Source: Dehalococcoidia bacterium (GTDB lineage Bacteria; Chloroflexota; Dehalococcoidia; Lucifugimonadales; CAZENU01). From it: a stretch of 64,000 nt of DNA. The stretch lies in assembly GCA_965220785.1 (NCBI GenBank), contig CBDCQW010000003.1, positions 702,003 to 766,002 on the forward strand. The letters are read 5' to 3'. The position numbers and the translations under genes are program-made. Below the pieces are notes generated by a model. The model was not told the DNA's origin, did no database searches, and saw nothing but the letters and a program-made list of their open reading frames with translations. Below, one piece after another: positions 6,678 to 55,880 of the stretch. How positions within the stretch are numbered: the first letter of the stretch is position 1; each line of letters begins with the position of its first letter.

Positions 6678-6747
6678 TCCGAGGCAGGCGTGGCGGCTTG
6701 ACAACCCCATTAGCTATAGGATTAGCTAATCGCATCATCGGGGGGAA

Positions 6748-6987: not shown

Positions 6988-7180
6988 CGCTGCGGCCCCC
7001 TTGGAAGCGCAAGCGCTTCTGTGGTGGGCCACGGACAGCGACAGAGGAGGACACGCGAGCGGAGCCCTGTGCATCACCTGGCTGACGCGACCCTCGGAGA
7101 CGGCCCAGCCAGAGGGTCAGATGTTTGCGGGGGATCATCGGGTGATCGGCCCATCGAGTTTGTTAGCGTTCCTCGACCTC
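6968..7180 (+). pseudogene. possible decayed PIN (VapC-like) toxin remnant
   Basis: Directly after the antitoxin, the frame reads PLEAQALLWWATDSDR, resembling the VapC N-terminus LLDT(H/Q)ALLWW with the catalytic Asp lost. No ATG/GTG start and no recognisable PIN sequence downstream. Confidence 0.3.
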
Positions 7181-7634
7181 TTAAAGCGGTACTGTCCGCT
7201 CCCATCGCGAAACGCCGTCGCCTGTCAGATAGTCAAACACACCGCTTCCCGGCGGGCCGCTGGGGATGATGGCGAATGCAAAGGTGTTGGCGTTGGCCGA
7301 CACAGCGCCGAACGACCTTTCGTGATGCACTTCGTCCGTCGTCACCGGATATCGGTGATCCCCAAGGAGGTGCCAGGCGCTTCCGTCTAGCCTGCAAAAG
7401 GACGTCAGCTCGGTAGTGTCTCTGTCCAAGGCCAAGGCTGGTTGCCGCTTCGCGAAGCGCTGCAACGGCGAAGAGCATGGCTCCACTTGGTACAGAACTA
7501 ACGTAGACTCTCCTAGGGCGAAAGTCCCGTTGTGCCCGAGTGACGATGTGCGCTAGTCTTTGCCATACACCCGACCAGTTTGCAATGTGGACTGGAGCTA
7601 AGCCGGTAGGGTAGCCGATGCAATGATATTCTGA

Positions 7635-8987
7635 CTAACGGATGAAGTGGGGTAAGTCCTGATATTTGCTTATAGTTTGGTCAACCAGACTCTGCGAGAC
7701 CTCGGCGAACTCAAACTTCACAAATAGCGAGCTTGCTATGTCGTGAACCAGTTGCACTAGTTGTCCTCTTATTAGGTCTGTTGTGACTTTACCTTGCCAT
7801 TCGTGAGCATCCACGTTGCTTGTTCTCCGAAAGTCTATGAAGGATGGATAATCAAGCACGGACGTATACAAGGTCCGCCGATGAAGCCCTCTGTGTTTGA
7901 TTGCCACTGAAAAACTTTCATTAGGCGCAATACCCAATTCCTCGTAGAGAAGTGCACCATGCAACAGCGCCCTAGCGATTCTAAAGATTGCCAGGTCGAA
8001 CCATAATGACCTCTTCGGATGGCCTAAGCTTGAAGAAAAAAATGGTGCCTCATAGTCTTCTCGAAAGAAAGCGGAGGAAAAGCAGGCACCATCTTGCGCA
8101 AGATGCCAATGGTCTGTCCCCGCAGGAGCTTTAGGCTCTGTTCGGCTTTCGATGCCGTCCTCCGCAGGAACGAGTTGGCTACTGTCAAACCACTCCGTGT
8201 AAGGCAGTTTTGCAGATACGGCTGCCCTTCGAAGTTCCTGAATGGTCCATCTTGAATCCCGTGGGCGAATCAACACTTGACCTGACTCCATGTAGCCGCC
8301 CCCGTCTGGTAGCGACTCCTTGGTCGTCAAATCAACCCGTCGTTTGACCATCCATTCATTCAATGCCTCCTTCATGTCCCCAGCAGGGGTTGCATCGCCT
8401 GCGTTCATGCGACGGAACAAGTCGACAAATTCTGATAGAAATTCGTCCCGCCGTTGCGAAACGCATCGCCTGAGCAAGTCCTCCCACTCTGATGGAGTTT
8501 GAATCTCAGAAGTCGCCGCTCCTGGTCTTCGGATGTACACCTTGCCTGTTTGCAGAATTGGTTGGTTTGCGTCGGACATGCCTTTGGTTGACCGACAGAT
8601 GAAGGGAGTCTTTTCAAGTCCCTGTATTCGAATGATTGGGTGGGGAAGTTGGGTCTTGGGATGGATCTCCATGAAGACTGTTAGCCGTATACCGCGGTCT
8701 CCATGAATATACTTGTCGACTGCGGCGCTCAGTCGAGTCGTATCGTAGGTGGCGGCGATCTCTTGTGAGTGATTGAGGTCAACCTGGAGAGTATCGTCAC
8801 TGTACCCGATTACGATCCACCCACCACCAACATTTGCCATTCCAAAGATGTGCTTTACCAATCTCAAGCCGAACGCCGTGTTGTCATCAAAGGGGACGGC
8901 TGACTTGTACTCCACGTCTTGGCGTTCACCGGGTGACGTAAGTAGGGACTTCCTGAAGTCAGCCACACCGGACTGGTCGGTGGTCAT
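7635..8987 (-). CDS. AlbA_2 (Schlafen-like divergent AAA/DNA-binding) domain protein with unknown about 300-aa C-terminal region
   Basis: N-terminal GERQDVEYKSAV...VKHIFGMANVGGGWIVIGY matches the AlbA_2 pattern (E-x-E/K-F/Y-K ... AfaNt-GG-liiG). G+C is clearly lower than the genome background. Confidence 0.65.
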   Translation of the reverse strand: MTTDQSGVADFRKSLLTSPGERQDVEYKSAVPFDDNTAFGLRLVKHIFGMANVGGGWIVIGYSDDTLQVDLNHSQEIAATYDTTRLSAAVDKYIHGDRGIRLTVFMEIHPKTQLPHPIIRIQGLEKTPFICRSTKGMSDANQPILQTGKVYIRRPGAATSEIQTPSEWEDLLRRCVSQRRDEFLSEFVDLFRRMNAGDATPAGDMKEALNEWMVKRRVDLTTKESLPDGGGYMESGQVLIRPRDSRWTIQELRRAAVSAKLPYTEWFDSSQLVPAEDGIESRTEPKAPAGTDHWHLAQDGACFSSAFFREDYEAPFFSSSLGHPKRSLWFDLAIFRIARALLHGALLYEELGIAPNESFSVAIKHRGLHRRTLYTSVLDYPSFIDFRRTSNVDAHEWQGKVTTDLIRGQLVQLVHDIASSLFVKFEFAEVSQSLVDQTISKYQDLPHFIR

Positions 8988-9037
8988 ATGTTGATATCTC
9001 CTACAGGGTCAAGCTGAACTGCCCCGGGGGTAGCGCT

Positions 9038-9970
9038 TTACCGTTCGTATAGCTCTATCGTCTCGGCGACCTGCCCGAAAACTCGCTTGAACTTTTCAAT
9101 TGCGTTATCGATCCAGCGCCGAGTCGCCGCTATCACGGCATCGTCGTCAAAGCAGGTGCGATCAGACAGGTACGCACATATGCGATACGAATTGTCGGAG
9201 TATGGGATGCCCCAATGCAACGGCCCTAACTCCGACTCAATAGATACTCGCTGCTGTGTCAGAGCAGTCAAGACTTCTTGGCGTATCGCTAAGGCTTGGG
9301 CTTCCCGTTCTGTATCTGTGCCCTCATAACGCCCCCTATAGACAGTCTCAATCCATATTCCCACCCCGGCTCTGTCCTGGCCGGGTTCCCACCATTCCCG
9401 CACGCTGATGTCCGCCGAGATTGTACAGTCCGGTTTGTAAGACCAGCTCCTGTGCGACCAGTTCCGGAAAAAAGACCAGGCTGGCTTTGTGGGAAGCTGC
9501 CGCCAGAATACTCTACCAAAGTCCCGTAGCGTCTGAACGAACCACTCCTCTACTTCCATCAAGGCTTTGGGGCTGTCATCAATGGTACAGTTCGGAAGTC
9601 GCACTGATATATGGGACTCTCCGTTGCGTTCTCGCTCCCAAATCAATTCCCCAAGCTCGGATTCAATGTTCCTCTTGTCTTCCAGGATGAAATCGAACAG
9701 CCGATGATTCCGAGCTGCATCGAGGTTGTGAATCACAACCGCAACTCTTGCTTCACGCAAGTCCGGGAGGAATGCAGCCCGATAGTGTACCCACGGGTAG
9801 GTGGCACGGAATTCTAGCCAATGTGCTGGTGTGGGAGTCGGAGGGTTATCGAATCCTTGGCTCTTCAACCGATCTGCAATCTTTAGGAAGAAGCATCTGT
9901 ACCGTGCGTCTTCTTGACGACGGCGGGCTTCATCGTGATGGGCCGGATCCCCTGGCACCATACCGTACAC
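9038..9970 (-). CDS. hypothetical protein with an internal tandem duplication, DUF4268-like
   Basis: Two about 140-aa halves each carry the I-E-S-E-L-G-x-L-x-W block (NIESELGELIWERE and SIESELGPLHWGIP), as in DUF4268. Low G+C. Confidence 0.45.
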   Translation of the reverse strand: MYGMVPGDPAHHDEARRRQEDARYRCFFLKIADRLKSQGFDNPPTPTPAHWLEFRATYPWVHYRAAFLPDLREARVAVVIHNLDAARNHRLFDFILEDKRNIESELGELIWERERNGESHISVRLPNCTIDDSPKALMEVEEWFVQTLRDFGRVFWRQLPTKPAWSFFRNWSHRSWSYKPDCTISADISVREWWEPGQDRAGVGIWIETVYRGRYEGTDTEREAQALAIRQEVLTALTQQRVSIESELGPLHWGIPYSDNSYRICAYLSDRTCFDDDAVIAATRRWIDNAIEKFKRVFGQVAETIELYER

Positions 9971-10042
9971 CTCCTTGGTGTCTCCCTGGGATCAGTTGAG
10001 CTCGTTCACCCGTGCGGAGAGGTCTAGGACAAGGCTCCGAAC

Positions 10043-13000
10043 TCACCGCGCCACCAGCCCCAATATCCCCCCAATCCGCCGCGCCGTGTCCGTGAAGTGC
10101 TGCACCTCCTCCGGCTTCAGCGGCCGGCCCAGGACGGACTGCTCGCGGTACGACAGCCACTTCTTCAGCACCTGGTACCCGCCGAGCTTGTAGCCCCAGA
10201 CGGCGGCGGGCACGTTGCGCCAGTACGCCCGGCCGTTGAGGTGGACGTCGAACGTCGTGTCGCCGAGCGCGGAAACGACGTCGCCCAGCGCCGTATGCTC
10301 CACCGACGTGTACGGGCGCTCGTCGACCCGCCCCTGCCCCGGCATCACCGCCTCGCCCTGACCGAAGTGGCCCCAGCCCGCCGTCAGCGCGAAGTCGCCG
10401 CCCGCCATGTTGCCGCCGTCCGTCGTCGACGGCACGGCGACCTTGGCGGCCTCGGGCCGCGGCGCCCCCGTCGTGACCCCGGGTACCGGCGTGTCCGAGT
10501 CGAGCAGCGCGGCCAGCTCCCGGCCCCGCGCGGCCGACGCGGCGAGGGCGTCCGACGCCCCGTCCTCGTCACCGTCCGGCCAGCCCGGAAGCGGGATGCG
10601 CGGCCACTCCATCCGCAGCGCTCCGGCGTTCGCCTCCCGGTACGCGGGATCGTGCAGCACCGCGAGCACGTGGTGGAACAGGTCCTCCACGCCGGCGCCT
10701 AAGTGCTCCAGATAGTTCTGGGTGGCTTCTGATAAGTTAGGACGTCGGCCAAGATGGTCGCCGTGGGGGTCCATGGCGCCGGCTTGAAGCCAAGCGGGGA
10801 CGCAAGTGGCGCCACGATCCATAAGGTCAAGGCACCCCATGTGTGCGATGACCTGCGGCGGTGACCACTCCCTACGCGGTTTCTGCTGGGTAACCAGCCA
10901 CTGACTCCTTTCGAAGACGTGCGGCTTATAGTCGGGTCGCGGCCGATCAAGCAATTCGCCATCCGGTTCCCAATAGAGCCACCGCGTATCGAATGGCCGG
11001 TAGCTGTATTGGATGAAGCCAGCTTCCTCGGGTCCACTTCTCTCAGTCTCGCCGGACTTGAAATAGGTTGAGAGACGCGCCTTAAGTCGATCGAGATCGA
11101 TGTCGACCAGGAACGAGTCACGGCTTGTCTTGACTCCTGGAAACGACATCGGAAAGAGATCAGGCAACGACGGCCAGTCGGACCATTCGTCGCTTACCGC
11201 CATCCGCGTGAACGGCAGGCCCAGCGGCAGATTCGGTTCGAAGCCGTCGTAGAGCGCGTCTGGCTCCGCGTGCGCCGTCGCCATCAGGTGCTCGCGCTTC
11301 GTCTGGCCCCATAAGTGGCGGAAGCCGACGGTCTTGGCCGGCACGTGGTCGTCCTTGCGCACCAGCGTGGCGATCGCAGTACCGACTTGGATGCTAACTG
11401 GCTTCTCGGGCGTCGAGAAGATGCTCGGGTCCGGATCGCCGTCCGGCGTCTTTTTCCCCGTCTTGTACTTGTCGCCGTTGAGACAGTCGATGCGGATCGC
11501 GTCGAACGCCTCCAGGTACCGTTCCCTCATGCCCGTGAACGACAGTCCGTCCAGCCACGAGTAGTTCGATATGAAGCACACGACGCCCCTGCCCGTCTTC
11601 TCGGCGATCCGCCGCTCGGCCATGCGGAAGAACCGCACGTACAGGTCGTTCAGGCCCTGACCCTCAGGCCTACGTACACGCTTTATCGTCCGATAGGCTG
11701 TCGAAAGCTCGCGCTCTTCGTCCACAGCCATGCCGGCGAACCCGTTATAGGGCGGATTGCCAAGTATCACAAGGACTGGTGCCTCCTGCTTCACACGCTC
11801 GGCGCGGTCGCGCTCCTCCTCCAGTTCTGGGAATGGGATCGTCTTCTTCTCCTTCGGCTCCCAGCCGGTGAGGGCATTTGTCATGAATATCCCCGCCCGC
11901 TCGTCCGCGTCCTCGGTCAGCGGCGCGTCGAGGTCCTGCATCGTCAGCCCGACCTGCAGGTGGGCGACGACGAATGGCGCGGGCATGATCTCGAAGCCGA
12001 AGACGCGCTCGGTCGCCGCCTGCTTCACACGCGCCCCCGTCAACGCCCCCAGGCCGCGTCCCTCCAGGTTCGCGGCGATGCGCCGCAGCACCTCCGACAG
12101 GTACGCGCCCGTGCCGCAGCACGGGTCCAGCACGTACACGTTCTTGGCCGCCAGCCCGTCGGCGATGCCCAGGTCGTCTTTCAGCGCACGGTCGACGCGG
12201 GCCACCATGTAGCGCACCACCTCGACCGGCGTGTACCAGACGCCGAGCTGCTTGCGCAGCGCCGGATCGAACGCCTCCAGGAACGGCTCGTAGAAGTACG
12301 GGACCGCCTCGCCCTCGCTGAATCGGTCGAAGAAGGCCCCGCGCTCCACCCGGTCCAACGCCGCCGCCGTCCAGTCCAGCACCTCGACCAGCCCCAGCGG
12401 CTGTAGCCGGCCGGGGTCCGATAGCTGCTGGAACAGCGCCCGCAGCACCGGCGCGCGGAGATGCCAGACCGCGGTGCGCCAGTCGAACGCGCCTACGGGC
12501 GGCGGCGTCTGACGGGCCCACAGCACCCACGCCGAGAAGACGCCGTAGAAGAGTGTCTGAACCAGCGTCGACCGGAAGAACGCCGCGCCGCGCTCGCCCT
12601 CGAAGCGGACTCCGAGCGCCTCCTCCAGGGCGGAGCGCACGGCGGCGAGGGACGGCGCGTCACCGGCGGCCTCCACGCGCGCCAGCCCGTCGCGGGCGTA
12701 GGACGCCATGAGCCAGGCCAAATCCCGTGGCTCGGCGAGCGAGGCGCGGTGGGACAGCGCGCGGCAGAGGTACTCGCCGAGGCCGGCGCCGACGTCGCCG
12801 GCGAAGTCGCGAGGCGTCTCCAGCCGCGACTCGAACTGCTCAGCGGACTCGGCCAGCCGGAACGTCTCCAGCTTCGCGGGCCCGCCCGCCGCGTCCTCCC
12901 CGAGCAGCACGAAGTCGCGGGTGTTCGTCACCAGCACGAGCCCGTACCTGCCCCAATAGCGGCTCACCTGGTCGCCGGACGCCGTCAGCCACGCGTCGTC

Positions 13001-13303
13001 GTCGACCGGCTTGACCTCCACGACGCCGCGCTCCGGGGTCTGCCCCTCGCGCAGCCTGCCCCGCTGCGTCTGCCGCGCGGCGTAGAGCCCGAGGTCGGGA
13101 TGGCCCGCCCCCTGCTCCGCCAGCTCGCTGACGCAGTAGACCTTGGGCTTCAGCGTAGCGCCCACGGCGTTCAGCAGGTTCGTCAGCGGAGGGTAGTACG
13201 ACCGCTCGCCGGTCGCCCCGCCGGATGCCCGGATGCGCCGCAGGTCGCCAAGATAGCTCTCGACGGCCGCGGTCAGCCTCTCCCGTGTCCCTGCCATGTC
13301 CAT
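10043..13303 (-). CDS. Fused restriction-modification enzyme: N-terminal PD-(D/E)xK nuclease-like region + N6-adenine DNA methyltransferase + type ISP-like C-terminal domain (type IIG/IIL-like)
   Basis: GHPDLGLY...VVEVKP (PD..ExK). SAM motif I VLDPCCGTGAYL and motif IV LGNPPYNG. C-terminal WGYKLGGYQVLKKWLSYRE is typical of type ISP / MmeI-like enzymes. No helicase domain. Start set at MDMAGTRE; the track start at 13423 is an extension. Confidence 0.8.
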   Translation of the reverse strand: MDMAGTRERLTAAVESYLGDLRRIRASGGATGERSYYPPLTNLLNAVGATLKPKVYCVSELAEQGAGHPDLGLYAARQTQRGRLREGQTPERGVVEVKPVDDDAWLTASGDQVSRYWGRYGLVLVTNTRDFVLLGEDAAGGPAKLETFRLAESAEQFESRLETPRDFAGDVGAGLGEYLCRALSHRASLAEPRDLAWLMASYARDGLARVEAAGDAPSLAAVRSALEEALGVRFEGERGAAFFRSTLVQTLFYGVFSAWVLWARQTPPPVGAFDWRTAVWHLRAPVLRALFQQLSDPGRLQPLGLVEVLDWTAAALDRVERGAFFDRFSEGEAVPYFYEPFLEAFDPALRKQLGVWYTPVEVVRYMVARVDRALKDDLGIADGLAAKNVYVLDPCCGTGAYLSEVLRRIAANLEGRGLGALTGARVKQAATERVFGFEIMPAPFVVAHLQVGLTMQDLDAPLTEDADERAGIFMTNALTGWEPKEKKTIPFPELEEERDRAERVKQEAPVLVILGNPPYNGFAGMAVDEERELSTAYRTIKRVRRPEGQGLNDLYVRFFRMAERRIAEKTGRGVVCFISNYSWLDGLSFTGMRERYLEAFDAIRIDCLNGDKYKTGKKTPDGDPDPSIFSTPEKPVSIQVGTAIATLVRKDDHVPAKTVGFRHLWGQTKREHLMATAHAEPDALYDGFEPNLPLGLPFTRMAVSDEWSDWPSLPDLFPMSFPGVKTSRDSFLVDIDLDRLKARLSTYFKSGETERSGPEEAGFIQYSYRPFDTRWLYWEPDGELLDRPRPDYKPHVFERSQWLVTQQKPRREWSPPQVIAHMGCLDLMDRGATCVPAWLQAGAMDPHGDHLGRRPNLSEATQNYLEHLGAGVEDLFHHVLAVLHDPAYREANAGALRMEWPRIPLPGWPDGDEDGASDALAASAARGRELAALLDSDTPVPGVTTGAPRPEAAKVAVPSTTDGGNMAGGDFALTAGWGHFGQGEAVMPGQGRVDERPYTSVEHTALGDVVSALGDTTFDVHLNGRAYWRNVPAAVWGYKLGGYQVLKKWLSYREQSVLGRPLKPEEVQHFTDTARRIGGILGLVAR

Positions 13304-13461
13304 ACTGTACCCCAGCAGAGGCAACGGCATGAAGGGGAAATCACCCGATGCGACGCTCAGCCGCCGCTTCGTCAGCTCGTCCCCTGGCGCCGTGAGCACC
13401 GTCAGGGCGACGGCCGGGTCCACCCGTCAGGGCCGCGCTGCGCAGGCGCGGGGTCCCGAAG

Positions 13462-13602
13462 CCGACGGAGCCCTATATCGTGGGCGATCTGACCATCGAC
13501 TATGACGAGCGCCTGGTGAGCCTTGCCGGTCGTCCAGTCGAGCTGACCGCCATCGAGTACCGGACGCTGGCCGAACTTTCGGCCAACGCCGGGCGTCGGG
13601 CG
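13462..13602 (+). pseudogene. stranded fragment of an OmpR/PhoB-type response regulator (winged-helix part only)
   Basis: EPYIVGDLTIDYDERLVSLAGRPVELTAIEYRTLAELSANAGR is the start of a Trans_reg_C domain. There is no receiver domain upstream, and the sequence diverges before the recognition helix. Confidence 0.7.
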
Positions 13603-13634
13603 ACCCTCGCCGGGAGGCTCAAGGCGTACAGGTG

Positions 13635-13640
13635 TATAAT
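13635..13640 (+). promoter_or_regulatory. perfect TATAAT -10 box 31 nt upstream of the ATPase start
   Basis: GGTGTATAATCAG. No good -35 seen. Confidence 0.3.
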
Positions 13641-13670
13641 CAGCAAGAATCCAGTACAAGGCGGCGAGCG

Positions 13671-14861
13671 ATGAACGCGCTAAGAGGAAATACGCCCCTT
13701 CGAAACATAACCTTGAAGAATCTCTTGTCGTTCGGCCCCGAGGGTCTGAGCCTGGATCTTGAGCCCCTCAACGTGCTGATAGGTCCGAACGGGTCCGGCA
13801 AGTCCAATTTGCTTGACGGAATTGAACTCTTGAAGTCAGCCCCCGTTCGGGTTACTGACCCTATTGCCAACGGAGGCGGTATCCGCAATTGGATTTGGGG
13901 AAGACAGCCCGGCCCCACTGCCTGGGTTGAGACCATCATGGAAAATCCCAATGACGGTCGACATTTCCTCCGCCACAAGATCGAATTCAGAGAGTTCGAA
14001 CAGGCCTTTCGGTTGGTGGATGAGAGGGTCGAGAACGAGTTCCCGGACTTAGGACACGAAGACCCCTTTTTTTTCTACAGATTCCAAGATGGCCGACCAG
14101 CACTGGCGGTCAAGGGTGAAGATAACCGCAGGCCGCTTCAGAGAGAGGATGTAGCTGACGACGAGTCCATACTCTCGCAGCGAAAGGAACCGGATCAATA
14201 CCCGGAGCTGGCCCATCTGAGCAGTTTGTACGAGGGCATGAGGCTTTATCGCGACTGGGGTTTTGGACGGAAGGCTCCCTTTCGTCAGCCCCAGAGTACC
14301 GATGTCCGTCCGACTCCTCTCAGGGAGGATTTTTCCAATCTTGGCATGTTCTTGAATCGTATCCGGCAAAACCCTAGAACCAAGTCGAGACTCATCGATC
14401 GTCTGACCGATGCTTACGAAGGGCTGAACGACTTTGAACTAAACTTCGAAGGAGGCTCCGTTCAGGTGTTCTTCAGCGAAGGCGATCTCGCCGTACCGGC
14501 AACGCGATTGTCGGACGGCAGCATGAAATACCTGTGTCTCCTGGCGATTCTGCTGAACCCGAATCCACCGCCAATTGTGTGTATAGAGGAGCCGGAGATG
14601 GGTATGCACCCTGACCTGCTGCCGAAAATTGCCGACCTCTTGGTCGAGGCGTCACAGCAGTGCCAACTGATAGTCACTACGCACTCGGATATTCTAGTTA
14701 ACGCACTAACCGACCGGCCCGCTTCGATAGTCGTGTGCGAAAAGCATGACGGCAAAACCTCGATGACCCGCCTTGACCCGGGGGACTTGTCGAGCTGGCT
14801 GGCAGAATACCGCCTAGGTGAACTGTGGACCAAAGGCCAGCTCGGGGGTGTCAGGTGGTGA
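13671..14861 (+). CDS. ABC-type (AAA_21/OLD-like) ATPase
   Basis: Walker A GPNGSGKSN, signature-like LSDGSMKYL, Walker B IVCIEEPEMGMHP and H-loop VTTHS. Start at MNALRGN. Confidence 0.85.
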   Translation: MNALRGNTPLRNITLKNLLSFGPEGLSLDLEPLNVLIGPNGSGKSNLLDGIELLKSAPVRVTDPIANGGGIRNWIWGRQPGPTAWVETIMENPNDGRHFLRHKIEFREFEQAFRLVDERVENEFPDLGHEDPFFFYRFQDGRPALAVKGEDNRRPLQREDVADDESILSQRKEPDQYPELAHLSSLYEGMRLYRDWGFGRKAPFRQPQSTDVRPTPLREDFSNLGMFLNRIRQNPRTKSRLIDRLTDAYEGLNDFELNFEGGSVQVFFSEGDLAVPATRLSDGSMKYLCLLAILLNPNPPPIVCIEEPEMGMHPDLLPKIADLLVEASQQCQLIVTTHSDILVNALTDRPASIVVCEKHDGKTSMTRLDPGDLSSWLAEYRLGELWTKGQLGGVRW

Positions 14862-15454
14862 AGGCGCGCATTTTTCTGGAGGGTGGGGGAGGAAAGGATC
14901 TAGATTCCAGATGCAGGGAGGGTTTCAACAAGCTTTTGAAAAAATGTGGCTTTGAAGGCCGGATGCCTAAGCTGACTGCCAGCGGGGACAGGAATTCCGC
15001 TTACAAGGGCTTCAAGTCCGCCCACGCGAGTGCGTCCAGCCAAGACTATATCGCAATGCTGGTAGACAGCGAGGACCCGGTCAAGGACGTCTACTCTCCC
15101 TGGGCGCACCTGGTCGAGAGAGAAGGTTGGAACGTGCCGCCGGGTGCCACGGACGAGCAGGTGCTGCTGATGGCGACTTGCATGGAAACCTGGATAGTCG
15201 CGGACGGGAGGGCCTTGGCCGCCCACTACGGCCAGTGTCTGCAGAGGTCCGCCCTGCCAGCGGTTAACAACCTGGAATCCAAAGATACGAAGACGGTTCA
15301 GGACAGTTTATTCCGCGCGACAAGGAACTGCACCGGCCCATACGAGAAGGGAAAGAAGTCTTACGAACTGCTGGGACAGATCAACCCCGCCGCCATCGAC
15401 CCCCTGCTGCCCAGCTTCAAGAGGGCACGGGACATATTGGTCTCAAAACTGTGA
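14858..15454 (+). CDS. DUF4276 family protein (Toprim-like E...DxD pattern)
   Basis: The GTG start overlaps the ATPase stop (GTGA). RIFLEGGGGKD near the N-terminus and MLVDSEDP later. Overall resemblance to DUF4276 proteins, which are routinely paired with AAA_21 ATPases. Confidence 0.7.
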   Translation: MKARIFLEGGGGKDLDSRCREGFNKLLKKCGFEGRMPKLTASGDRNSAYKGFKSAHASASSQDYIAMLVDSEDPVKDVYSPWAHLVEREGWNVPPGATDEQVLLMATCMETWIVADGRALAAHYGQCLQRSALPAVNNLESKDTKTVQDSLFRATRNCTGPYEKGKKSYELLGQINPAAIDPLLPSFKRARDILVSKL

Positions 15455-15854
15455 ACCGGCTACTTTCACTGCGACATCCGGAAGGATCCCGCGGCACGGG
15501 CAGGTTGTTCCGTCCGGCCACGCAAATGACATTAGGAGCGGTGGCCTTTTCGACATAGGCCGTGCCCGGCCCGTACGGAGAAATCGCTCCATCGTTGTCG
15601 CCGACCCCGTGCCAGACGGTAGCCCGGGTGTCACCTCCCGGCATATTCCTACGTTCGTCCGGCTGTCTGACGGGACGGAAGGCCGCCGTCGGGTCGTGCG
15701 TCGGCGACTCCGTCAGCCTGCTCGATGGACTGATCACCGGCGCGAACCCGGCGACGGTGATCTCGGTGGACACCTGTCCGAAGTCGTCAAAACTGCCGCG
15801 ACCTTCGGAGACTTCAGCCCACCGCGGACGGTCGCACGGGTGAAGCATCTGCAC
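15417..15854 (-). CDS. hypothetical protein (uncertain)
   Basis: 145-aa ORF convergent with and slightly overlapping the DUF4276 gene. No family recognised. Confidence 0.3.
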   Translation of the reverse strand: MQMLHPCDRPRWAEVSEGRGSFDDFGQVSTEITVAGFAPVISPSSRLTESPTHDPTAAFRPVRQPDERRNMPGGDTRATVWHGVGDNDGAISPYGPGTAYVEKATAPNVICVAGRNNLPVPRDPSGCRSESSRFTVLRPICPVPS

Positions 15855-15924
15855 GATAATTTCCCCTTTCAGATAGGAAACGGTCGTATCCCGTCGTGGT
15901 TTTTCCCTAAATTGTTCCCCTAGG

Positions 15925-16338
15925 CTAGGGAAGAAATATGCCGAGTAACTGCGGGGCTCTGCAAGCGTAAGCGGGCTGAATCGGAGGGATGGCGTCTAAT
16001 GTCACCGCCGGTGTAAGAATGACCCAGTAGCGCCGGAATGGAATTGACCCACCCCTTACGACAGCGATGGCGGCAACTACGACGATGGCCAGTGCGACGA
16101 CGTATCCCATGAACATGCCCAGCCGTCGTCGGCTTGAGGCTTCCCTCTCGAGGTTACGCCGGTGCTCAGACTCCGTTTCGACATTCTTGAATATCCGATC
16201 GGCGGCGCCTGGAAGAGTCTTCTCGTAAGCCTCGAGCGCTGCGGGCGGTGGCAGAGGACCGCTCCAACTGGCAGAGACGATGGAAGTACGAACTTCTCGC
16301 TCGTCGCTATCCTCGGACCGGTTCTCGATCTCTGCCAT
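15925..16338 (-). CDS. DUF2335 domain membrane protein
   Basis: SWSGPLPPPAALEAYEKTLPGAADRIFKNVETESEHRR is the DUF2335 signature, followed by a transmembrane segment. Confidence 0.75.
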   Translation of the reverse strand: MAEIENRSEDSDEREVRTSIVSASWSGPLPPPAALEAYEKTLPGAADRIFKNVETESEHRRNLEREASSRRRLGMFMGYVVALAIVVVAAIAVVRGGSIPFRRYWVILTPAVTLDAIPPIQPAYACRAPQLLGIFLP

Positions 16339-16552
16339 CGGACTCTGTCTCGCTCAGGATGTCCAAGTCGTGCTCTTCCTCAAAGGCGACCATCGCCTGC
16401 CGCAAGCTCTCTCCGAACAGCTCCCAGTCCCGGCGAATGGAATCCAGATCGGCTTGAAGGGCTTCAGCAGCAGTCGAATGCTGTTTGCAATACTTGTCGA
16501 AGAAGTAGTCAGAGATATCGAACGGCGCGAAGAAGCGGGTCCGAGAGGTCAT
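16307..16552 (-). CDS. hypothetical small protein
   Basis: 81-aa ORF immediately upstream of, and overlapping, the DUF2335 gene. Confidence 0.4.
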   Translation of the reverse strand: MTSRTRFFAPFDISDYFFDKYCKQHSTAAEALQADLDSIRRDWELFGESLRQAMVAFEEEHDLDILSETESDGRDREPVRG

Positions 16553-16721
16553 GGAGTTCTCCCCTGCTTACATGGCCTGTCCGAGGCGGGGCCGGATTGT
16601 AAGCCGACGTAGCATAGCCTGTCAAGGCGGAGCGCAGCCACCGCTACCAGCATACCACAGCGGCCAGCTTGGCTAACCGGGGCACCGGAGAATGGTGATG
16701 GACCAAGACCCGTGCGACCTC

Positions 16722-16961
16722 TGGACAATAGCCGTACATCTGTGCTATTCTTCCCGCGTGACAACCGCACCCATCCCCCAACTACCCACTATCCACCATC
16801 CACTATGAAACACCCCTGTCCCAAAATGTCCCATTTTGTTCCGCCCTGTTCCACCTCAGATACGAACCGTGGAACACCTGGTGTTCCATTTTTCGGCAAA
16901 GTGTTCCACCGCCCAGATAGGAATGGAACACTTTGGAACACAATGGAACAGTTCACACGGA
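16722..16961 (+). repeat. TGGAACA-hairpin element, copy B (candidate sRNA gene)
   Basis: TGGACA (16722-16727)-N18-TATTCT (16746-16751), then a core near-identical to copy C. Contains a small internal duplication (TGTCCCAAAATGTCCCATTTT). Confidence 0.9.
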
Positions 16962-17038
16962 ATCGACTCCGGGCCAGGCGCTCCCCAACACGTGAGACCC
17001 CTGCGTAACCGCCCGCGTTCCCGCGCCGCCTCGACGCG

Positions 17039-18211
17039 CTAGACCCGCGCCGCCTCCAGCTCCTCCAGCGTCATCTCGATGCCGAAGCCGGGGGCGTCGC
17101 TGGGGACGAGTCGCCCCTGCTTCGGGGACGCCATGCCGGGGGTCAGACGCCCGCCGTAGACGTTGTCCAGCGACACGCCCGGCGCCGTCGTCGCCGACAG
17201 CTCGCCCCACGGGACGGCCGGCATCGCGTAGCAGACGTGCTGCCCGTACGCGTCGTTCATGCCTCCGTGGGGGATAACCGATATCCCCGCCGCCTCCGCG
17301 ATGTGGCATATCTTCACGATCGCCGTCGCGCCGCCCACCCACTGGATGTCCGGCTGGAAGATGTCCACCGAGTGCCGGGCAGCCGCCGCCATGAACGGCA
17401 CCGTCGTGTACCAGTGCTCGCCCGTCGCCAGCGTCTGCCACGGCAGACGCCGACGCATCTCCTCGAACCCCTGGAAGTCGTCCGGGATCAGGCTGTCCTC
17501 CAGCCACTTCAGGTCGTACTGCCGCAGACGCTCCGCCTGCCGCACAGCGAACTCCAGGTCCAGCGCCATCCAGCAGTCCAGCATCAGCTCGACGGCCGGC
17601 CCGATCGTCTCCCTCGCCTTCGCGACCAGCTCCTCGTTCCGGCGCAGCCCGTCGAGGCCGTCGGCAGGGCCGTAGGGGCACGCCAGCTTCGTGGCCTCGA
17701 ACCCCAGCTCCATGTACCAGTCGGTGTCGTTGCCGGTCGCGTAGCAGAAGATGCTGTCGCGCGCCGGCCCGCCCAGCAGCTCGTAGACGGGCCGCCCCAG
17801 CAGCTTGCCCTTCAGGTCCCAGAGAGCCAGGTCGACCGCGCTGATCGCGTAGCTGGCGAGCCCGGACGACCCGTACGGCGACGCGATGCGGTACATCATG
17901 TCCCACAGCCTCTCGGTCGCCGTGCACTCCTCGTCGACCAGCAGCCGCGCGAAGTGGTCGTTGATCACCGGCGCGACCGGGCCGCTGTGCGTCGTGAAGC
18001 CGAGCCCCCACGTGCCGTCCTCGGCCGTGACGACGCAGGCCAGCGGCGGCCAGCTCGGCGACCACAGCCTGCGGATGCGCTTGTACCGCGGGTACCTCGA
18101 CATCGGGTTCGCCACCTCCGCCGTCTCCGACCAGGCGGGCCGCCGGGCCCTCGGATCGGACGCCGGCTGTGGAAACGAGACCGGAAAGGCGACTATCTCT
18201 TTGATCTTCAT
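17039..18211 (-). CDS. enolase-superfamily dehydratase, L-rhamnonate dehydratase-like
   Basis: Start at MKIKEIVAFPV. Blocks VDLALWDLKGK, MLDCWMA, LKWLED, TGEH and FQPDIQWVGG parallel E. coli RhmD. Confidence 0.8.
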   Translation of the reverse strand: MKIKEIVAFPVSFPQPASDPRARRPAWSETAEVANPMSRYPRYKRIRRLWSPSWPPLACVVTAEDGTWGLGFTTHSGPVAPVINDHFARLLVDEECTATERLWDMMYRIASPYGSSGLASYAISAVDLALWDLKGKLLGRPVYELLGGPARDSIFCYATGNDTDWYMELGFEATKLACPYGPADGLDGLRRNEELVAKARETIGPAVELMLDCWMALDLEFAVRQAERLRQYDLKWLEDSLIPDDFQGFEEMRRRLPWQTLATGEHWYTTVPFMAAAARHSVDIFQPDIQWVGGATAIVKICHIAEAAGISVIPHGGMNDAYGQHVCYAMPAVPWGELSATTAPGVSLDNVYGGRLTPGMASPKQGRLVPSDAPGFGIEMTLEELEAARV

Positions 18212-48666: not shown

Positions 48667-50389
48667 CTTAGCCCGAATCCACCGATGCGGAGCGGCCTTG
48701 GGGTTGGAACAAGGGGTGAGGGCCGTGGGGCGCGACGGTCCGCGCTCGATCCCGATAAATGGGGCCGGTGGCGGCCTTTGGTTGTCGTTGGGGGCGCCGA
48801 TGGCGGTTCTGGGCAGCGGCGCTGGGGCGGGGTCGGCGGGACAGCATGCAAGGGAAGACAATCGCGGACCGGGCCGGTGCGACTCTGTGGGGTGGTTGAG
48901 TAGTCTGGTGGACGTGTCAGGCGCCGTCGGTGCCGTCAGGCAGGCAATGGCAGGGCTCGCAATCGAGCCAGGGCGCGAGTGAACTGGGTTTCCCAAGGCC
49001 AGCCCTGTGGCAGATGCAAAGTGAGGCGGCGGGCCGAGCGGGTGAGCCGTCCGGCCAGGGAGAAGAAGCGCCGCCGGAGGGTCCTGGTGGTCACCACCCC
49101 CTCGCCCAGACCGATGCGCGCGGTCCAGCGGGCCAGGTTATGGGCCAGCACCTGGACGGCCAGCCAGGCGCCGTTGGCGGCGAAGCGGCCCGAGGGGAGA
49201 TGATTGAGGCCGACGCCGTGCTTGAGGTCTCGGATGGCATTCTCGATCTCGGCGTGGCGGCGATGGTCGGCCTCCAGTTCCAGGACATCCCCCTCGCGGT
49301 CTGTGATGAAGGCGTGATAGCTGTAGTTGGCGAACAGCGCCAGTTGAGATCCGGGTGTGGGCCTCACCCGGCGGACGATGAGCCGTACCGGCGCGGCGTC
49401 GGGCTCGCCCTTGAAGGGCGTGTAGCTGGTTTCGGCCACGTCGGCAGCGCCCTCCATCCAGTAGGGTATGGGCGTCCAGTGATCCTCGGGTATGGCTTCT
49501 ATCAGACTGCGCAGGCTCTGGTGCTGGCGCACGGTGATGGAGAAACGGACATCCATCTTGCGGCAGACGACGACCAGGGCGTGGGCATAGAAGCCGCTGT
49601 CGGCCCGCACCGTGAGTTGTCCTGTAGCCCCAGCATGGCGCACCCGGCCCACGGTCTCCCGCAGGAAGTGGGCGGCGCCCCGAACGGTGTTGGCCCGGCC
49701 CTCGCGAAGCCGGGACATCAGCACGTCGCCGGTGCCGGCGGCGATGGCCAGCAGCGGGTGATAGCCCCGCTTGCCGGTGTAGCCATGGTGGCGCGCCCCT
49801 TCCTTGGCCAGTCCGTAGGTTTCGCAGATGGTGGAGTCCAGATCGATGGTCAACGACCCGTCGCCGGGTCCACCACCAGCGGCCCAGGCTCGGGACAGCA
49901 GCTCCCGGCTCACCCGATCCAACTGGCGGACGTGGCCCCACCGGAAGCTGCGCAGGAAGGTCCCCAGGGTGGACGGCGCCTTGACCACGTAGCCCAGGAC
50001 CCGCCCCGTCCTGCCGGAACGCAACACGTCGGCGTCGTCGATGCAGTCGCCCCCAGCCAGAGCGGAGGCCACCAGGGTCAGCAGCTTGTCCCCGGTGTTG
50101 GCCCGGCCCGGCGCGTCTCCCAGGTCGACGTGGCTGTCGACGAGTTCACGCAGGCCCAGGTGCTGGGCTAGGGTCACCGGAAGCAGCAGCCCAGCATTGG
50201 CCACCAGGCGGGTGTCGTCGAAGGCGATACGGATGCGGTCGGGGTGGTTGCGTGGTAGCATCTATTGGGTGCTCCTTGTTCTGGGGTCGGCTTTGCTGTT
50301 CCAAAACCATTATCCCAGATTCACAGGAGCACCCTCTTGCCGCTTCAGGACACTGACCCGACGCCCTCCTTCGGTGGATTCGGGCTTAG
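48667..50389 (-). mobile_element. IS1380-family insertion sequence, apparently intact
   Basis: Terminal inverted repeats CTTAGCCCGAATCCACCGA (48667-) and its complement with one mismatch (-50389). Single 441-aa transposase. Confidence 0.85.
48936..50261 (-). CDS. IS1380-family DDE transposase
   Basis: N-terminus IAFDDTRLVANAGLLLPVTLAQHLGLRELVD and the 441-aa size are typical of IS1380 transposases. Confidence 0.85.
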   Translation of the reverse strand: MLPRNHPDRIRIAFDDTRLVANAGLLLPVTLAQHLGLRELVDSHVDLGDAPGRANTGDKLLTLVASALAGGDCIDDADVLRSGRTGRVLGYVVKAPSTLGTFLRSFRWGHVRQLDRVSRELLSRAWAAGGGPGDGSLTIDLDSTICETYGLAKEGARHHGYTGKRGYHPLLAIAAGTGDVLMSRLREGRANTVRGAAHFLRETVGRVRHAGATGQLTVRADSGFYAHALVVVCRKMDVRFSITVRQHQSLRSLIEAIPEDHWTPIPYWMEGAADVAETSYTPFKGEPDAAPVRLIVRRVRPTPGSQLALFANYSYHAFITDREGDVLELEADHRRHAEIENAIRDLKHGVGLNHLPSGRFAANGAWLAVQVLAHNLARWTARIGLGEGVVTTRTLRRRFFSLAGRLTRSARRLTLHLPQGWPWETQFTRALARLRALPLPA

Positions 50390-52810: not shown

Positions 52811-53300
52811 GTAACTGTTCGCGTTCGATGGGGCCCGTGTGCGCCTGTCCGAGCTTCAGGCGGGCCCTTCGATACGGCCCGCCCAAAGTGGCGGGCCTAC
52901 TCAGGGTGAACGGGTTGTGTGGGGCCCGAAGCGGCGCGGCTGCTCAGGTGAACGGATTGTGTGGGCATCAACTCTGAACAATTACCGCCGGCCGCGTTCG
53001 CAGCCGTCACCCTCGCTCCAGACGTCGACGTATCTGTTCAGAGTTACTGACAGGAACACGGGCCACCGCCGGTAGATTCCTCATTTCGTGGGCATGACGG
53101 TGCGTGGGGCCGTTGCCGCACGACCCGTTCACCCCGAGTGCCCCGACGCTTCGTCGGGGTGTATCGAGGGGCCCGCACAGCCCATTGTTTGGGGCGGGGC
53201 CGACGCCGGCATTGGCGACAGAGCTGCGCGCCCCCTTCGATACGCGCCGGTAAAAGCACCGGCACTACTCAGGGTCAGCGGGTTGGGTCGATCCCCGATA
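52811..53300. repeat. REP/BIME-like cluster (at least four units of the GAACGGGTT / TTCGATAC family)
   Basis: Boundary motifs GTAACTGTTCG (52811), AACTCTGAACAATTAC (52970) and CTGTTCAGAGTTAC (53034). Units at about 52860-52925, 52926-52965, 53110-53175 and 53225-53290. Confidence 0.85.
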
Positions 53301-53330
53301 GTCTTCGCGACCGGCCGGGCGTGCAACTTC

Positions 53331-53561
53331 TGGACAATAACCGTACATGCGTGCTATTCTACCCGCGTGATACCCACCCCCGACGCCCCAACTATCCACT
53401 CTTCACTATCCACTATGGAACACCCCTGTCCCATTTTGTTCCGCCCTGTTCCACCTCAGATACGACACGTGGAACACTTGGTGTTCCATTTTTCGGCAAA
53501 GTGTTCCATCGCCCAGATAGGAATGGAACACTTTGGAACACAATGGAACAGCTCACACGGA
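53331..53561 (+). repeat. TGGAACA-hairpin element, copy C (candidate sRNA gene)
   Basis: TGGACA (53331-53336)-N18-TATTCT (53355-53360). Hairpins at 53448-53475, 53469-53489 (followed by a T-run) and 53498-53534. Confidence 0.9.
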
Positions 53562-53658
53562 AAATCCACCGCCCAACGCCCCAACTATCCACTATCCCAC
53601 TACTCCTATCGACCGCTCCACTCAGCCCCAGGGCGCTCCCGCACGTCCCGTCGAGGGA

Positions 53659-54090
53659 TTACGGCTGGTCGCCGCCGGTGCCCACCCAGCCGGACTGCGA
53701 GATGTCGACCATCACGCCGTCCGGGCCGTCGTACTTGGACTCCACGTTTGGGCCATGAGGCGCGGCGTCCATCGGCGGCCGCAGCGCGTCGTTGATCTCG
53801 TTCATCGGCAGCGAGCCCGCGGCCCGCAGCCGCGCGTCGGAGGCCTCCGCGTCGTCGACCTGGAACCCGATGTGATGTATGCCGCTGTAGTCGGCGCCCA
53901 GCTTGCCGGCGACGACAGGGTTCTTGAACCGGAGGATCGCCATGTTCACGTTGCCGTCGCTCAGGTAGTATCCCTCGGCGTTCTCACCGGCTACGCGTCC
54001 GACCTCTTTCAGGTCGAACACCTCCTTGTAGAACCGGGCCGTCTCGTCCGGGTCCTGCGTCGCGATCGCGATGTGCTTGATCTTTGCCAT
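53659..54090 (-). CDS. VOC (glyoxalase/bleomycin-resistance/dioxygenase) family protein
   Basis: MAKIKHIAIATQDPDETARFYKEVFDL, 143 aa. Confidence 0.8.
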   Translation of the reverse strand: MAKIKHIAIATQDPDETARFYKEVFDLKEVGRVAGENAEGYYLSDGNVNMAILRFKNPVVAGKLGADYSGIHHIGFQVDDAEASDARLRAAGSLPMNEINDALRPPMDAAPHGPNVESKYDGPDGVMVDISQSGWVGTGGDQP

Positions 54091-54210: not shown

Positions 54211-55029
54211 GTGGAAATAGGCGTCCTGACGCTGAACACGTCCGAGTCCACGGACGCCGCCGTGATCGGGCGGCGCGCCGAGGAGCTCGGCTTCGATTCG
54301 CTCTGGGTGCCGGAGCACCAGGTGGTGCCCGTGCACACCCGAGAGTCGGTCCCGGAGCTGTACAGCCGCTTCCCGGACCCGTTCGTGACGCTGTCGCGCG
54401 TCTCCGCGGTCACGGACAGGCTGAAGCTCGGCACCGCCGTCTGCCTCGTCCCGCAGCACCACCCGTTGATACTCGCCAAGGAGATCGCGAGCCTCGACAT
54501 GTACTCCGGCGGCCGGTTCGTGTTCGGCGTCGGGTCGGGATGGATCAGGGAGGAAGGCGAGATACTGGGAGTCGACTTTGACCGCCGGTGGACGCAGACG
54601 ATGGAGGCCATACGCGCCATCAAGGAGCTGTGGACCGGCGAGACGAGCGAGTTTCACGGCGACTACTACGATTTCCCGCCGGTCTACCACTACCCCAAGC
54701 CCGTGAGCCGGCCGTGTCCGCCGATTCTGCTGGGGAGCGCGGCTCCGAAGGTCTTCGAGAGGATCGTCGCGGACGCCGACGGCTGGATTCCGATCGGCGC
54801 CACGCCGGCCGAGATCGAGTCGGCCCGCGCGACGCTGGACAGACTCGCGGCGGCCGCCGGCCGCGACCCCGCCACCCTGCAGATCGTGGCCGACGACGTG
54901 GACGCCGACAGGCAGACGATCGCCGACCTGGCGTCCGCGGGCGCCGACGCCGCGATACTTGGCCCGAGAACGCCCGACAGCCAGTGGACGGTCTCCGAGC
55001 TCGAACGCGCCGCGGAAGCCGTACTGTAG
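54211..55029 (+). CDS. LLM-class (luciferase-like) probable F420-dependent oxidoreductase
   Basis: RRAEELGFDSLWVPEHQVVP and 272-aa length. Confidence 0.8.
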   Translation: MEIGVLTLNTSESTDAAVIGRRAEELGFDSLWVPEHQVVPVHTRESVPELYSRFPDPFVTLSRVSAVTDRLKLGTAVCLVPQHHPLILAKEIASLDMYSGGRFVFGVGSGWIREEGEILGVDFDRRWTQTMEAIRAIKELWTGETSEFHGDYYDFPPVYHYPKPVSRPCPPILLGSAAPKVFERIVADADGWIPIGATPAEIESARATLDRLAAAAGRDPATLQIVADDVDADRQTIADLASAGADAAILGPRTPDSQWTVSELERAAEAVL

Positions 55030-55049
55030 CGGCCCAAGGAGGAGAAGCT

Positions 55050-55880
55050 ATGCCAGCCAGGGCAATGTGGAAAGGCGCGATCAGCTTCGGCATGGTCGTC
55101 ATCCCGATCCGCCTCTTCAACGCCACCAGGAGCAGGACGATCCCGTTCTCGACGCTCCACAGCACCTGCAACACCAAGCTGCGCCATCGCCGCTGGTGCG
55201 AGTACCACAACGAGTTCGTCGAAAGGGACGAGGTATCCCGCGGCTACGAGTACGAGCGCGGCCAGTACCTCGTGATGGAAGACACCGACTTCCAGGGACT
55301 GCCGGTCTCCTCCACCCATACCATCGGCATCACGAAGTTCGTCAGCCTCGAAGATATCGACCCGATATACTACCAGCGCAGCTACTGGCTCGAGCCTGAA
55401 GCCCTCGGAAGGAAGCCGTACCGGCTGCTCAAGGAGGCGCTGGAAAAGACCAACCGCGTAGCCATCGCCTCCGTGTCGATCCAGCAGAAGGAGCACGTGT
55501 GCGCGGTCAGGGCGACCGAGAACGGCCTGCTGATGTCGACGATGGTCCACTCCGACGAGCTGGCCCGCACCGACGACCTGGAGCTGGACGAAGGCGAGGG
55601 AGACGTCTCGGCCGCGGAGGTCGATATGGCCGTGACCCTGATCGATCAGCTCGCCGGCGAGTTCGCCCCGGAGGAGTACACGGACGAGTACAGGCTCGCC
55701 CTGGAGAAGAGGATCGAGGCCAAGCTGGCCGGCGCGGCGCCGCAGGTCGCTTCGGCAGCGCCCGAAGCGGGACAGGTCGTCGACCTCATGGCCGCGCTCA
55801 GGTCCAGCATCGAGGCGACACGCAGGCAGGCGGGCGCGGACACGTCCGAAGAGCCCGAGCCGGCCGCCGCGTCGGGTTAG
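55050..55880 (+). CDS. ku: Ku protein (non-homologous end joining)
   Basis: MWKGAISFGMVVIPIRLFNAT is the bacterial Ku N-terminus. Start preceded by AGGAGGAG. Confidence 0.9.
   Translation: MPARAMWKGAISFGMVVIPIRLFNATRSRTIPFSTLHSTCNTKLRHRRWCEYHNEFVERDEVSRGYEYERGQYLVMEDTDFQGLPVSSTHTIGITKFVSLEDIDPIYYQRSYWLEPEALGRKPYRLLKEALEKTNRVAIASVSIQQKEHVCAVRATENGLLMSTMVHSDELARTDDLELDEGEGDVSAAEVDMAVTLIDQLAGEFAPEEYTDEYRLALEKRIEAKLAGAAPQVASAAPEAGQVVDLMAALRSSIEATRRQAGADTSEEPEPAAASG

Follow-up and report, generated by a model that had tools for sequence, protein, structure and literature searches.

A repeat unit of ∼300 nt occurs three times in a 64,000-nt stretch of DNA from a Dehalococcoidia bacterium (contig CBDCQW010000003.1; the window), as copy A on the minus strand and copies B and C on the plus strand (Table 1). 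Each copy carries an array of the heptad TGGAACA or its complement, TGTTCCA. Judged from alignment with homologues in other genomes, the repeats are gene-less copies of the 5′ start region of a gene for a helix-turn-helix (HTH) protein resembling small terminases (TerS), and they most likely represent docking platforms for such a TerS-like protein rather than a structured small RNA. It is considered probable, if only modestly so, that each copy is the gene-less 5′ control region of a TerS-like gene and that its heptads are the cognate double-stranded DNA sites of a TerS-like protein encoded elsewhere in the genome.

The repeat unit and its gene of origin

In each copy, a promoter-like box is followed by a variable leader of 55-100 nt and by a core of ∼135 nt, which is ∼90% identical among the three copies. 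An earlier, sequence-only reading of the window had described three copies of a ∼150-nt core; reading of the sequence and alignment located them at or near the positions given there, with promoter pairs at the N18 spacing it had named (TGGACA-N18-TATTCT in B and C, TTGCAC-N18-TACTCT in A). The core is real, but the homologous unit is longer than reported: it extends ∼65 nt beyond the last heptad, as far as GCGCTCCCGCAC, and ∼100 nt in copy C, which contains a 43-nt insert. This insert duplicates a leader segment and is the reason for the direct repeat flanking copy C, which had been seen correctly but measures 18 nt (53383-53400 and 53576-53593) instead of the 17 nt proposed. As had also been stated, all copies point at the 3′ end of a convergent gene, the stop codon of which lies 51-109 nt past the last heptad. 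Copy C was found at the same locus in six strains (L121-L126).

A genome scan for (TGGAACA-N3)x3, with one genome per species, returned >106 loci from many phyla, and 3-6 exact-array matches were obtained per genome. Full-length homologues of the core are present in the Dehalococcoidia metagenome-assembled genome (MAG) OZ220748.1 (loci L018, L020, L021, L067, and L078) and at L085. One of them, L021, is the orthologue of copy B (87% identity) and is syntenic with it beside the same rhamnonate-dehydratase-like gene, which places the window in a related, SAR202-like genome of Dehalococcoidia. More distant versions in other Dehalococcoidia MAGs have the same layout, that is, a TTGAC-type −35 box, a TG extended −10 box, degenerate inverted heptads, and three perfect direct heptads. 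At one such locus (L040, Dehalococcoidia OY282365.1), the second heptad provides the ATG of a 137-aa gene, the start of which is thus overlapped by the triple array. An array overlapping the gene start was also found for P0010, P0009, P0003, P0016, P0020, and P0021. The order of elements at the gene-bearing loci is always the same: promoter, leader with inverted heptads, ribosome-binding site, and three direct heptads located at −10 to +20 around the start codon. Hence, in the full-length homologues, the repeat-bearing region lies where a pac-type site would be expected, at the promoter and the start of a terS-like gene.

In PHROGs, the 137-aa product of L040 has matches to small-terminase families alone; in Pfam, it matches HTH_Tnp_1_2. 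Altogether, 20 homologues of 136-159 aa were found. TerS families were the sole PHROG matches (E<=0.001) for all 19 members that were aligned, with phrog_2538 matching each of them (best E 3e-11), and the precomputed Pfam matches of the family are Sf6_terminase and HTH_Tnp_1_2. An AF2 model (pLDDT 76) shows an HTH followed by two long helices. A profile search of the PDB sequences retrieved Sf6 gp1 at E 0.7. The family is large, comprising 8,436 clusters at 50% identity (E<=0.001).

The window copies align with the 5′ region of this gene and run into the decayed beginning of its coding sequence (∼20 codons), which can be followed as far as the codons for "ALPH"; this truncated gene end had been overlooked by the sequence-only reading, which did see the array. 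Gene-less copies are the rule: among 32 examined Dehalococcoidia/Chloroflexota loci matching the pattern, the gene is present at L040 only. That the core itself codes for a small protein was ruled out by a 10-nt insertion in copy B, by frame-breaking indels, and by open reading frames (ORFs) that differ among the copies. The 10-nt insertion (16817-16826; TGTCCCAAAA) is a duplication that adds one phased heptad, and growth of the arrays apparently proceeds in whole steps of 10 nt.

The promoter is very probably genuine, given that homologous promoters elsewhere drive an intact gene and that it possesses a TG extended −10 box; in the promoter scan, the TG immediately preceded the −10 box in copies B and C. 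A LexA-type operator (GAAC-N4-GTGC) in the promoter spacer was considered and dropped: GTGCTATTCT represents the TG extended −10 box, and GAACA/GCACA sits upstream of it. A conserved motif, AATCC..GTTCAGAC(A/G), is located 5-40 nt 5′ of the −35 box in copy A (6176-6163), L021, L115, and L218, and is absent from B and C; a related one, ACTCTGAACAGTTAC, lies 50-75 nt upstream in L018, L020, L067, and L085.

Two further features accompany intact TerS-like genes. A conserved ORF of 96-101 aa overlaps the stop codon at four loci (L115, 8396-8701; L222, 7396-7701; L223, 5474-5773; L224, 5477-5767) and had no match in Pfam, PHROG, or PADLOC. Directly 3′ of the intact TerS-like P0010 in L107 (∼6500-6580), there is a candidate tRNA gene, probably tRNA-Pro as judged by eye, with a promoter containing a TG extended −10 box (TGCTATCCT). 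A subfamily with a GATAGG array was represented by only three loci in a metagenome scan and was set aside.

Phasing, invariance, and co-variation of the heptads

The window contains TGGAACA or its complement 30 times, compared with 3.2 occurrences expected; none of 100 shuffles reached this number, and 22 of the 30 lie inside the three copies. Exact heptamers number seven in A, seven in B, and eight in C, or 9, 11, and 10, respectively, when one mismatch is allowed, which bears out the array described for each copy in the sequence-only reading. All heptads of each copy fall on a period of 10.7 bp (resultant length R = 0.9), so the sites are expected on one face of double-stranded DNA. Across nine homologues from two species, the heptads are invariant, as are the promoter −10 box and the CAGATA(C/G)G motifs, whereas the gene remnant and the 5′ leader are heavily changed. 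The repeat feature is real and under selection.

This uneven decay is one of the reasons why the copies are unlikely to be functionless relics, that is, pseudogene stubs decaying after deletion of the TerS-like gene and kept similar by gene conversion. Such an origin would agree with the coding remnant, which is clearly decayed and contains frame-breaking indels, with the end point shared by all copies of the subgroup, which suggests a single ancestral truncation, and with the paralogues B and C, between which the similarity appears greater than between B and its orthologue L021 (alignments judged by eye). It is hard to reconcile with the parts that have not decayed, with heptads that the core gained by internal duplication and that are absent from the gene-bearing versions, with the conservation of the orthologous site of copy B at the level of the neighboring coding gene (87% identity), and with the fact that just 1 of the 32 loci mentioned above carries the gene.

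An indication of what reads the heptads comes from their sequence, which differs among lineages while the three copies inside one array stay alike. The predicted recognition helix of the encoded protein begins with V-G-R-T-T at L107, where the array is TGGAACA, with I-N-R-T-T at L222 (TGCATCA), with I-A-R-A-T at L218 (TGAGACA), with V-N-R-T-T at L223 (TGCAACA), and again with V-G-R-T-T at L224, where the array is a degenerate TGGAACA. TGGAACA is therefore paired with G-R-T, TGCA(A/T)CA with N-R-T, and TGAGACA with A-R-A. Array and leader also change in concert between two sister loci: the inverted leader repeats read TGTTCCA (five times) at L224 and TGTTGCA (three times) at L223.

Because the 10-nt period puts residues 2 and 5 of the protein on the same variable bases, the N-terminal peptide M-x-Q-N-x-T reports the heptad of any given array, and co-variation could be followed within the protein family itself (49 representatives of 50%-identity clusters). 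Co-variation is seen between the two array-encoded residues, 2 and 5 (p<=2e-4). Within the HTH, residue 5 is associated with the positions on either side of the conserved Arg, namely 3 and 5 (p<=2e-4), and with position 7 (p=0.0015), and residue 2 with position 3 (p=6e-4); no association was observed between residue 5 and HTH positions 1, 2, 6, 8, and 9 (p 0.2-0.5). Peptides of the type E..G, which correspond to TGGAACA, occur with G-R-T in seven of seven cases, Q..A peptides with N-R-K in two of two, and K..E peptides with Val after Arg or Lys in four of four. With positions 3 and 5 as its focus, the association argues for direct readout beyond shared descent alone. Given this co-variation of heptad sequence with the residues on both sides of the conserved Arg, the TerS-like protein itself most likely uses the heptads as its DNA sites.

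The sequence-only reading had offered a multicopy small RNA or an attenuator-like RNA beside a protein-binding array. A regulatory RNA (small, antisense, or attenuator) would require that the promoter fires and that the heptads and their complements form alternative hairpins, which set the 3′ end or the read-through into the convergent gene. Several observations are compatible with this: the promoter is conserved; the sequence of copy C does contain the hairpin pairings proposed for it; copy C folds better than shuffled sequences (z = -4.3 for the plus strand and -3.5 for the minus strand); in the sister loci L223 and L224, array and leader anti-heptads switch together so that complementarity is retained; and the array spans ribosome-binding site and start codon in intact genes, where pairing with the leader could control translation.

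The tests of a structured RNA gave a different picture. At the gathering threshold, the sole Rfam match in the window was a tRNA, and at E<=10, the best matches of copy C were chance hits to miRNA and lncRNA families (13-15 bits vs thresholds of 45); the sequence-only reading had likewise recognized no known RNA family. Covariation was assessed in the nine homologues for 35 base pairs, made up of the two hairpins proposed previously and the long-range helix of the minimum-free-energy fold. Twenty-one pairs never vary, only one is changed on both sides, and in 10 of the 14 variable pairs, every departure yields a non-pair. The observed score (0.030) did not exceed the shuffle mean (0.033) and was no higher than in 293 of 500 shuffles. 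Differences between copies had been said to fall in loops while stems are kept, which holds for the three window copies but not for the nine homologues: there, stem positions outside the heptads vary without compensation (the stem extensions AAAG...CTTT, for example, break freely), and the CAGATA(C/G)G "loops" are conserved to the same degree as the stems. A scan for intrinsic terminators found no site in 53000-53700 and 16500-17100, and the 9-bp hairpin of copy C with its TTTTT tract, which had been described as terminator-like, stayed below the criteria. Moreover, the common variant TGTCCCA creates a C-A mismatch on the transcribed strand, the leaders of L107 and L222 are alike despite different arrays, and 10.7-bp phasing over 130 nt lacks a rationale at the RNA level. 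Together with the heptad co-variation, which points to a protein reader, these results render a regulatory RNA distinctly unlikely. The option of a protein-binding array gained support from the invariant heptads, their phasing, and their co-variation with an HTH protein that is encoded directly downstream in full-length homologues. More generally, palindromic repeat arrays 3′ of a promoter can mimic a riboswitch-type RNA and yet be protein-binding DNA.

A defence island and strain-variable borders

Copies A and B are inverted relative to each other, with the promoters facing inward and the arrays outermost (127 nt at 90% identity). Between them lie 10.5 kb of DNA with defence genes (Table 1), an arrangement that had escaped the sequence-only reading. 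In a relative (L129), the block corresponding to 5839-17038 is absent, and the two flanking genes are convergent, 46 nt apart, with a hairpin resembling repetitive extragenic palindromic (REP) elements alone between them; this empty site identifies the block as an insertion. Within it, HEC-01 is a candidate defence system (13632-15454; subunit A, E 1e-159; subunit B, E 2e-62) that adjoins the Type IIG restriction-modification (R-M) enzyme and PDC-S11. At the inner edge of the island, a near-consensus promoter on the minus strand (16596-16625; TTGACA-N18-TACAAT, 11/12) precedes a divergent 81-aa ORF (16307-16552), ∼100 bp from the promoter of copy B. Look-ups of the exact protein sequence for two window genes returned no record.

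Table 1. Copies of the repeat unit, their parts, and defence genes in the window.
Feature	Position	Strand	Remarks
Copy A, whole unit	5843-6163	−	Promoter TTGCAC 6150-6145/TACTCT 6126-6121 (N18); heptads 5889-6023; gene remnant to GCCCTGCCGCAC at 5854-5843
Copy B, whole unit	16708-16995	+	Promoter 16722-16751; heptads 16806-16950; gene remnant to GCGCTCCCCAACAC at 16978-16991
Copy C, whole unit	53317-53648	+	Promoter, leader, heptad core, and decayed ∼20 first codons of TerS-like HTH gene; aligned with A, B, and six homologues
Copy C, promoter	53331-53360	+	TGGACA-N18-TATTCT, TG extended −10; promoter scan; homologous promoters precede intact HTH genes
Copy C, heptad core	53416-53550	+	10 TGGAACA/TGTTCCA sites (5 direct, 5 inverted), 10.7-bp period; two conserved CAGATA(C/G)G motifs
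Copy C, triple direct array	53524-53550	+	(TGGAACAnnn)x3; in intact homologues directly 3′ of the ribosome-binding site, equivalent to start codon and codons 1-6
Copy C, 43-nt duplicate	53567-53609	+	Duplicate of leader segment 53374-53416, inserted in gene remnant
Defence island	6164-16707		Between inverted copies A and B; Pfam and PADLOC; lower G+C
Schlafen AlbA_2	7635-8987		In island
PDC-S11	9038-9970		In island
Type IIG R-M enzyme	10043-13423		In island
HEC-01 A/B	13632-14861 and 14825-15454		In island
DUF2335	15925-16338		In island

The bracketing raises the question of whether A and B are the ends of a mobile element, either a miniature inverted-repeat transposable element (MITE) or a composite transposon, with terminal repeats and subterminal transposase-binding sites that move the island. 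Their inverted orientation with outermost arrays and the insertion of the whole block relative to L129 would fit, as would the several subterminal repeats, given that Tn7- and Mu-type ends carry multiple repeats of this kind. Yet Pfam and PADLOC revealed no transposase or integrase in the island, a similar island in L128 has the A-side copy alone, and the unit is homologous to the 5′ region of a gene and not to a known end of an insertion sequence (IS). Terminal inverted repeats and target-site duplications, the latter named in the sequence-only reading as a sign of an ordinary MITE, were looked for and not found: all palindromes of the unit are internal, and the direct repeat of copy C is an internal duplication present in C only. 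Mobile-element ends are accordingly a very improbable explanation. The units do share with MITE and REP repeats that they are multicopy, intergenic, palindromic, and often located between convergent genes; unlike them, they carry a promoter and derive from the 5′ end of a gene.

The association with defence genes extends to loci at which the TerS-like gene is intact. Comparison of eight contigs for P0010 and of six for P0009 showed a constant module with one constant flank, whereas the sequence directly 5′ of the −35 box is strain-variable, and the junction between the two lies exactly at cccccTTGACC. The variable upstream cargo consists of a Type II R-M system, an SNF2 helicase, an Eco57I-like enzyme, HNH plus AAA ATPase, methylase-Vsr, DUF1828, or an IS. 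The P0001/P0003 locus behaves in the same way. In Dehalococcoidia, intact modules are thus the fixed border of a strain-variable region with defence genes.

For gene-less copies, a defence-island association of every copy was considered and abandoned; it is frequent but not general. Copy C has no cargo in the six strains, and a tandem repeat of variable copy number lies upstream of it. Apparent variable cargo genes at this position in other strains proved to be artefacts of this tandem repeat (unit of ∼170-260 nt). The repeat unit surrounds a ∼52-nt hairpin motif, CCCCGACGcttcGTCGGGG (53104-53272 in the window, core hairpin 53122-53173), and is repeated 2-4 times between GlnRS and copy C in other strains, which gives rise to spurious gene calls of 200-444 aa. 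The hairpin motif occurs with 93-98% identity in five OZ220748.1/L085 loci and usually lies 125-240 nt 5′ of the heptad unit. The REP-like hairpin (GTAGGGG-nn-GGTTTG-n-AACC-nn-CCC), which shows compensatory changes, was observed in the window (6262-6293, minus strand), in L129 (11196-11226), and in L011, L043, L087, and L093, and is also often 5′ of heptad units.

Two further features of the window deserve mention. An IS with a DDE_Tnp_1_4 transposase (48936-50261, minus strand) has a 92% identical copy in the variable cargo of L116, beside a TerS-like module. An ORF with a Ku domain (54588-55880; 430 aa as listed, 276 aa in related contigs) lies ∼1 kb from copy C, so that the organism probably has a capacity for non-homologous end joining.

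Comparison with pac sites and other phased arrays

Short, helically phased repeats next to a promoter are also characteristic of iterons, and the units might accordingly be the replication origin or the partition centromere of an integrated element. TGGAACA arrays in other phyla adjoin proteins that resemble P4-type primase-helicases by sequence, and the array of one viral contig (L158) adjoins a gene matching the PHROG DNA-primase family. Near the window copies and the Dehalococcoidia homologues, there is no rep, initiator, primase, or par gene, and the presence of three copies in 64 kb of a chromosome also speaks against this reading. In addition, triple arrays of two shuffled heptamers are found in viral contigs as well (5 and 16 hits vs 64 for TGGAACA, many of the 64 being redundant phage groups), so that the cross-phylum occurrence of the heptamer is largely coincidental and its similarity mostly reflects convergent iteron architecture. 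The notion of TGGAACA as a universal cross-phylum motif was therefore abandoned, as were resemblances to parS half-sites, DnaA boxes, and P4 ori iterons, because the Dehalococcoidia copies have no primase, rep, or par genes in their vicinity. Iterons are scarcely probable as an explanation of the window units. None of the array-carrying viral contigs encodes a member of the TerS-like HTH family; TGGAACA arrays do lie upstream of terS-terL pairs in some of them (L163 and L170), but the shuffled controls indicate that such arrays are generic. Across 106 genome loci, clustering revealed no conserved neighbor protein.

Planctomycetes contain phased arrays as well. In Tepidisphaeraceae (L022, L036, L060, and L072) and Gemmataceae (L032, L035, and L080), tandem modules of three 10-nt-spaced heptads occur, each followed by a C-rich or A-rich tract. 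Their heptads differ in sequence (ATGTTAC, ATGCAAC, ATGTCAC, ATGTGAC, and TGGAACA), and all fit ATGnnAC, the variable-dinucleotide pattern of the TerS-like family.

Other small DNA-binding proteins use comparable platforms. ParR-parC iterons and the heptads bound by the omega protein of pSM19035 are short motifs in direct and inverted orientation, arranged at about one per helical turn over a promoter and bound cooperatively by a small protein. The window arrays likewise contain many short motifs in both orientations, at about one per turn and overlapping a promoter. They differ in that the predicted reader consists of an HTH and a helical hairpin, as opposed to a ribbon-helix-helix protein, that no partition ATPase is present, and that the copies are dispersed over the chromosome.

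A close parallel is the pac region of the Bacillus phages SPP1 and SF6, where the small terminase G1P recognizes its site. This region extends over the terS promoters into the start of the gene and includes several sets of direct repeats, with which a ring of HTH domains is believed to make contact (PMC4737164). The window unit represents the equivalent stretch, from the promoter to about codon 20. Unlike SPP1/SF6 pac, the window copies have no terL, portal, or phage gene nearby, and most copies lack terS; the repeats are strictly phased 7-mers in both orientations, and their sequence co-varies with residues of the HTH. The DNA-binding domain of SF6, by contrast, shows little specificity.

Chromosomal pac sites are known to drive lateral transduction of neighboring defence hotspots (PMC12829572). 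The stand-alone chromosomal terS-like gene with its own predicted site beside defence genes is also reminiscent of the TerS/pac modules of phage-inducible chromosomal islands. In contrast to these islands, no integrase, replication, or capsid-remodelling genes are present here, the module is stably syntenic instead of being an excisable island, and the cargo lies upstream of the module, not in the expected downstream direction of packaging.

On balance, the best reading of the copies is that they are orphan binding platforms for a TerS-like protein, either pac-like or acting as operators and decoys. Several TerS-like subunits, probably in the form of an oligomer, would dock on the phased heptads, and the orphan copies would provide additional platforms in trans. 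The favoured role is that of a pac-like recognition platform, in which case the orphan copies may give terminase additional points of entry into the chromosome or act as decoys for it.

A number of points weigh against this interpretation. The 64-kb window contains no intact TerS-like gene, and a partner protein in this genome is therefore assumed. Within 5-8 kb of the TerS-like gene, no large terminase or other phage gene was detected in the six protein contexts examined. Neither NCBIfam nor PADLOC holds a model for the family, and structural support is limited: the top Foldseek match is Sf6 TerS (3hef, E 0.44), with the T4-type TerS 44RR gp16 (3txs) also listed, both weak and not significant. 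Co-variation of heptads and HTH residues could in part be due to shared descent. Several additional copies without the gene are flanked by genes of unchecked function that show the high third-position G+C of this genome, so that the link to defence islands does not hold generally. Half of the heptads are inverted, whereas direct repeats should be preferred by a ring built of identical subunits. Packaging by SPP1 and P22 runs in the direction of terS transcription; if this applied here, the variable cargo upstream of the module would be on the unpackaged side. Finally, the purified DNA-binding domain of SF6 TerS has little sequence specificity for its repeats (PMC4737164).

Considering the lack of TerL, the inverted half of the sites, and the upstream position of the cargo, a plain autoregulatory operator, with orphan copies titrating the protein as decoys, is nearly as likely as a pac-like role of the TerS-like platforms. 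A more far-reaching scenario, tentative and rather unlikely as a whole, is that a resident, domesticated TerS-like protein, with a two-residue code co-evolving with the 10-nt triple repeat across its own start codon, and its gene-less platforms form a host network of pac-like entry points, which would recruit phage packaging or cutting machinery to selected places in the chromosome and thereby create or mobilise the variable defence hotspots at their borders.

What appears to be new here is recognition of the TerS/pac type that is chromosomal, mostly gene-less, and equipped with a readable protein-DNA code. If the proposed relationship is correct, an intergenic repeat of an uncultured bacterial class would be tied to a large family that resembles TerS and is without a model in NCBIfam or PADLOC, and this family would gain a predicted DNA target and a simple recognition rule. 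The repeat would also serve as a sequence landmark for defence-gene hotspots of Dehalococcoidia, and orphan pac-like sites would offer a route by which chromosomal immune islands without mobility genes of their own may be cut, exchanged, or packaged.

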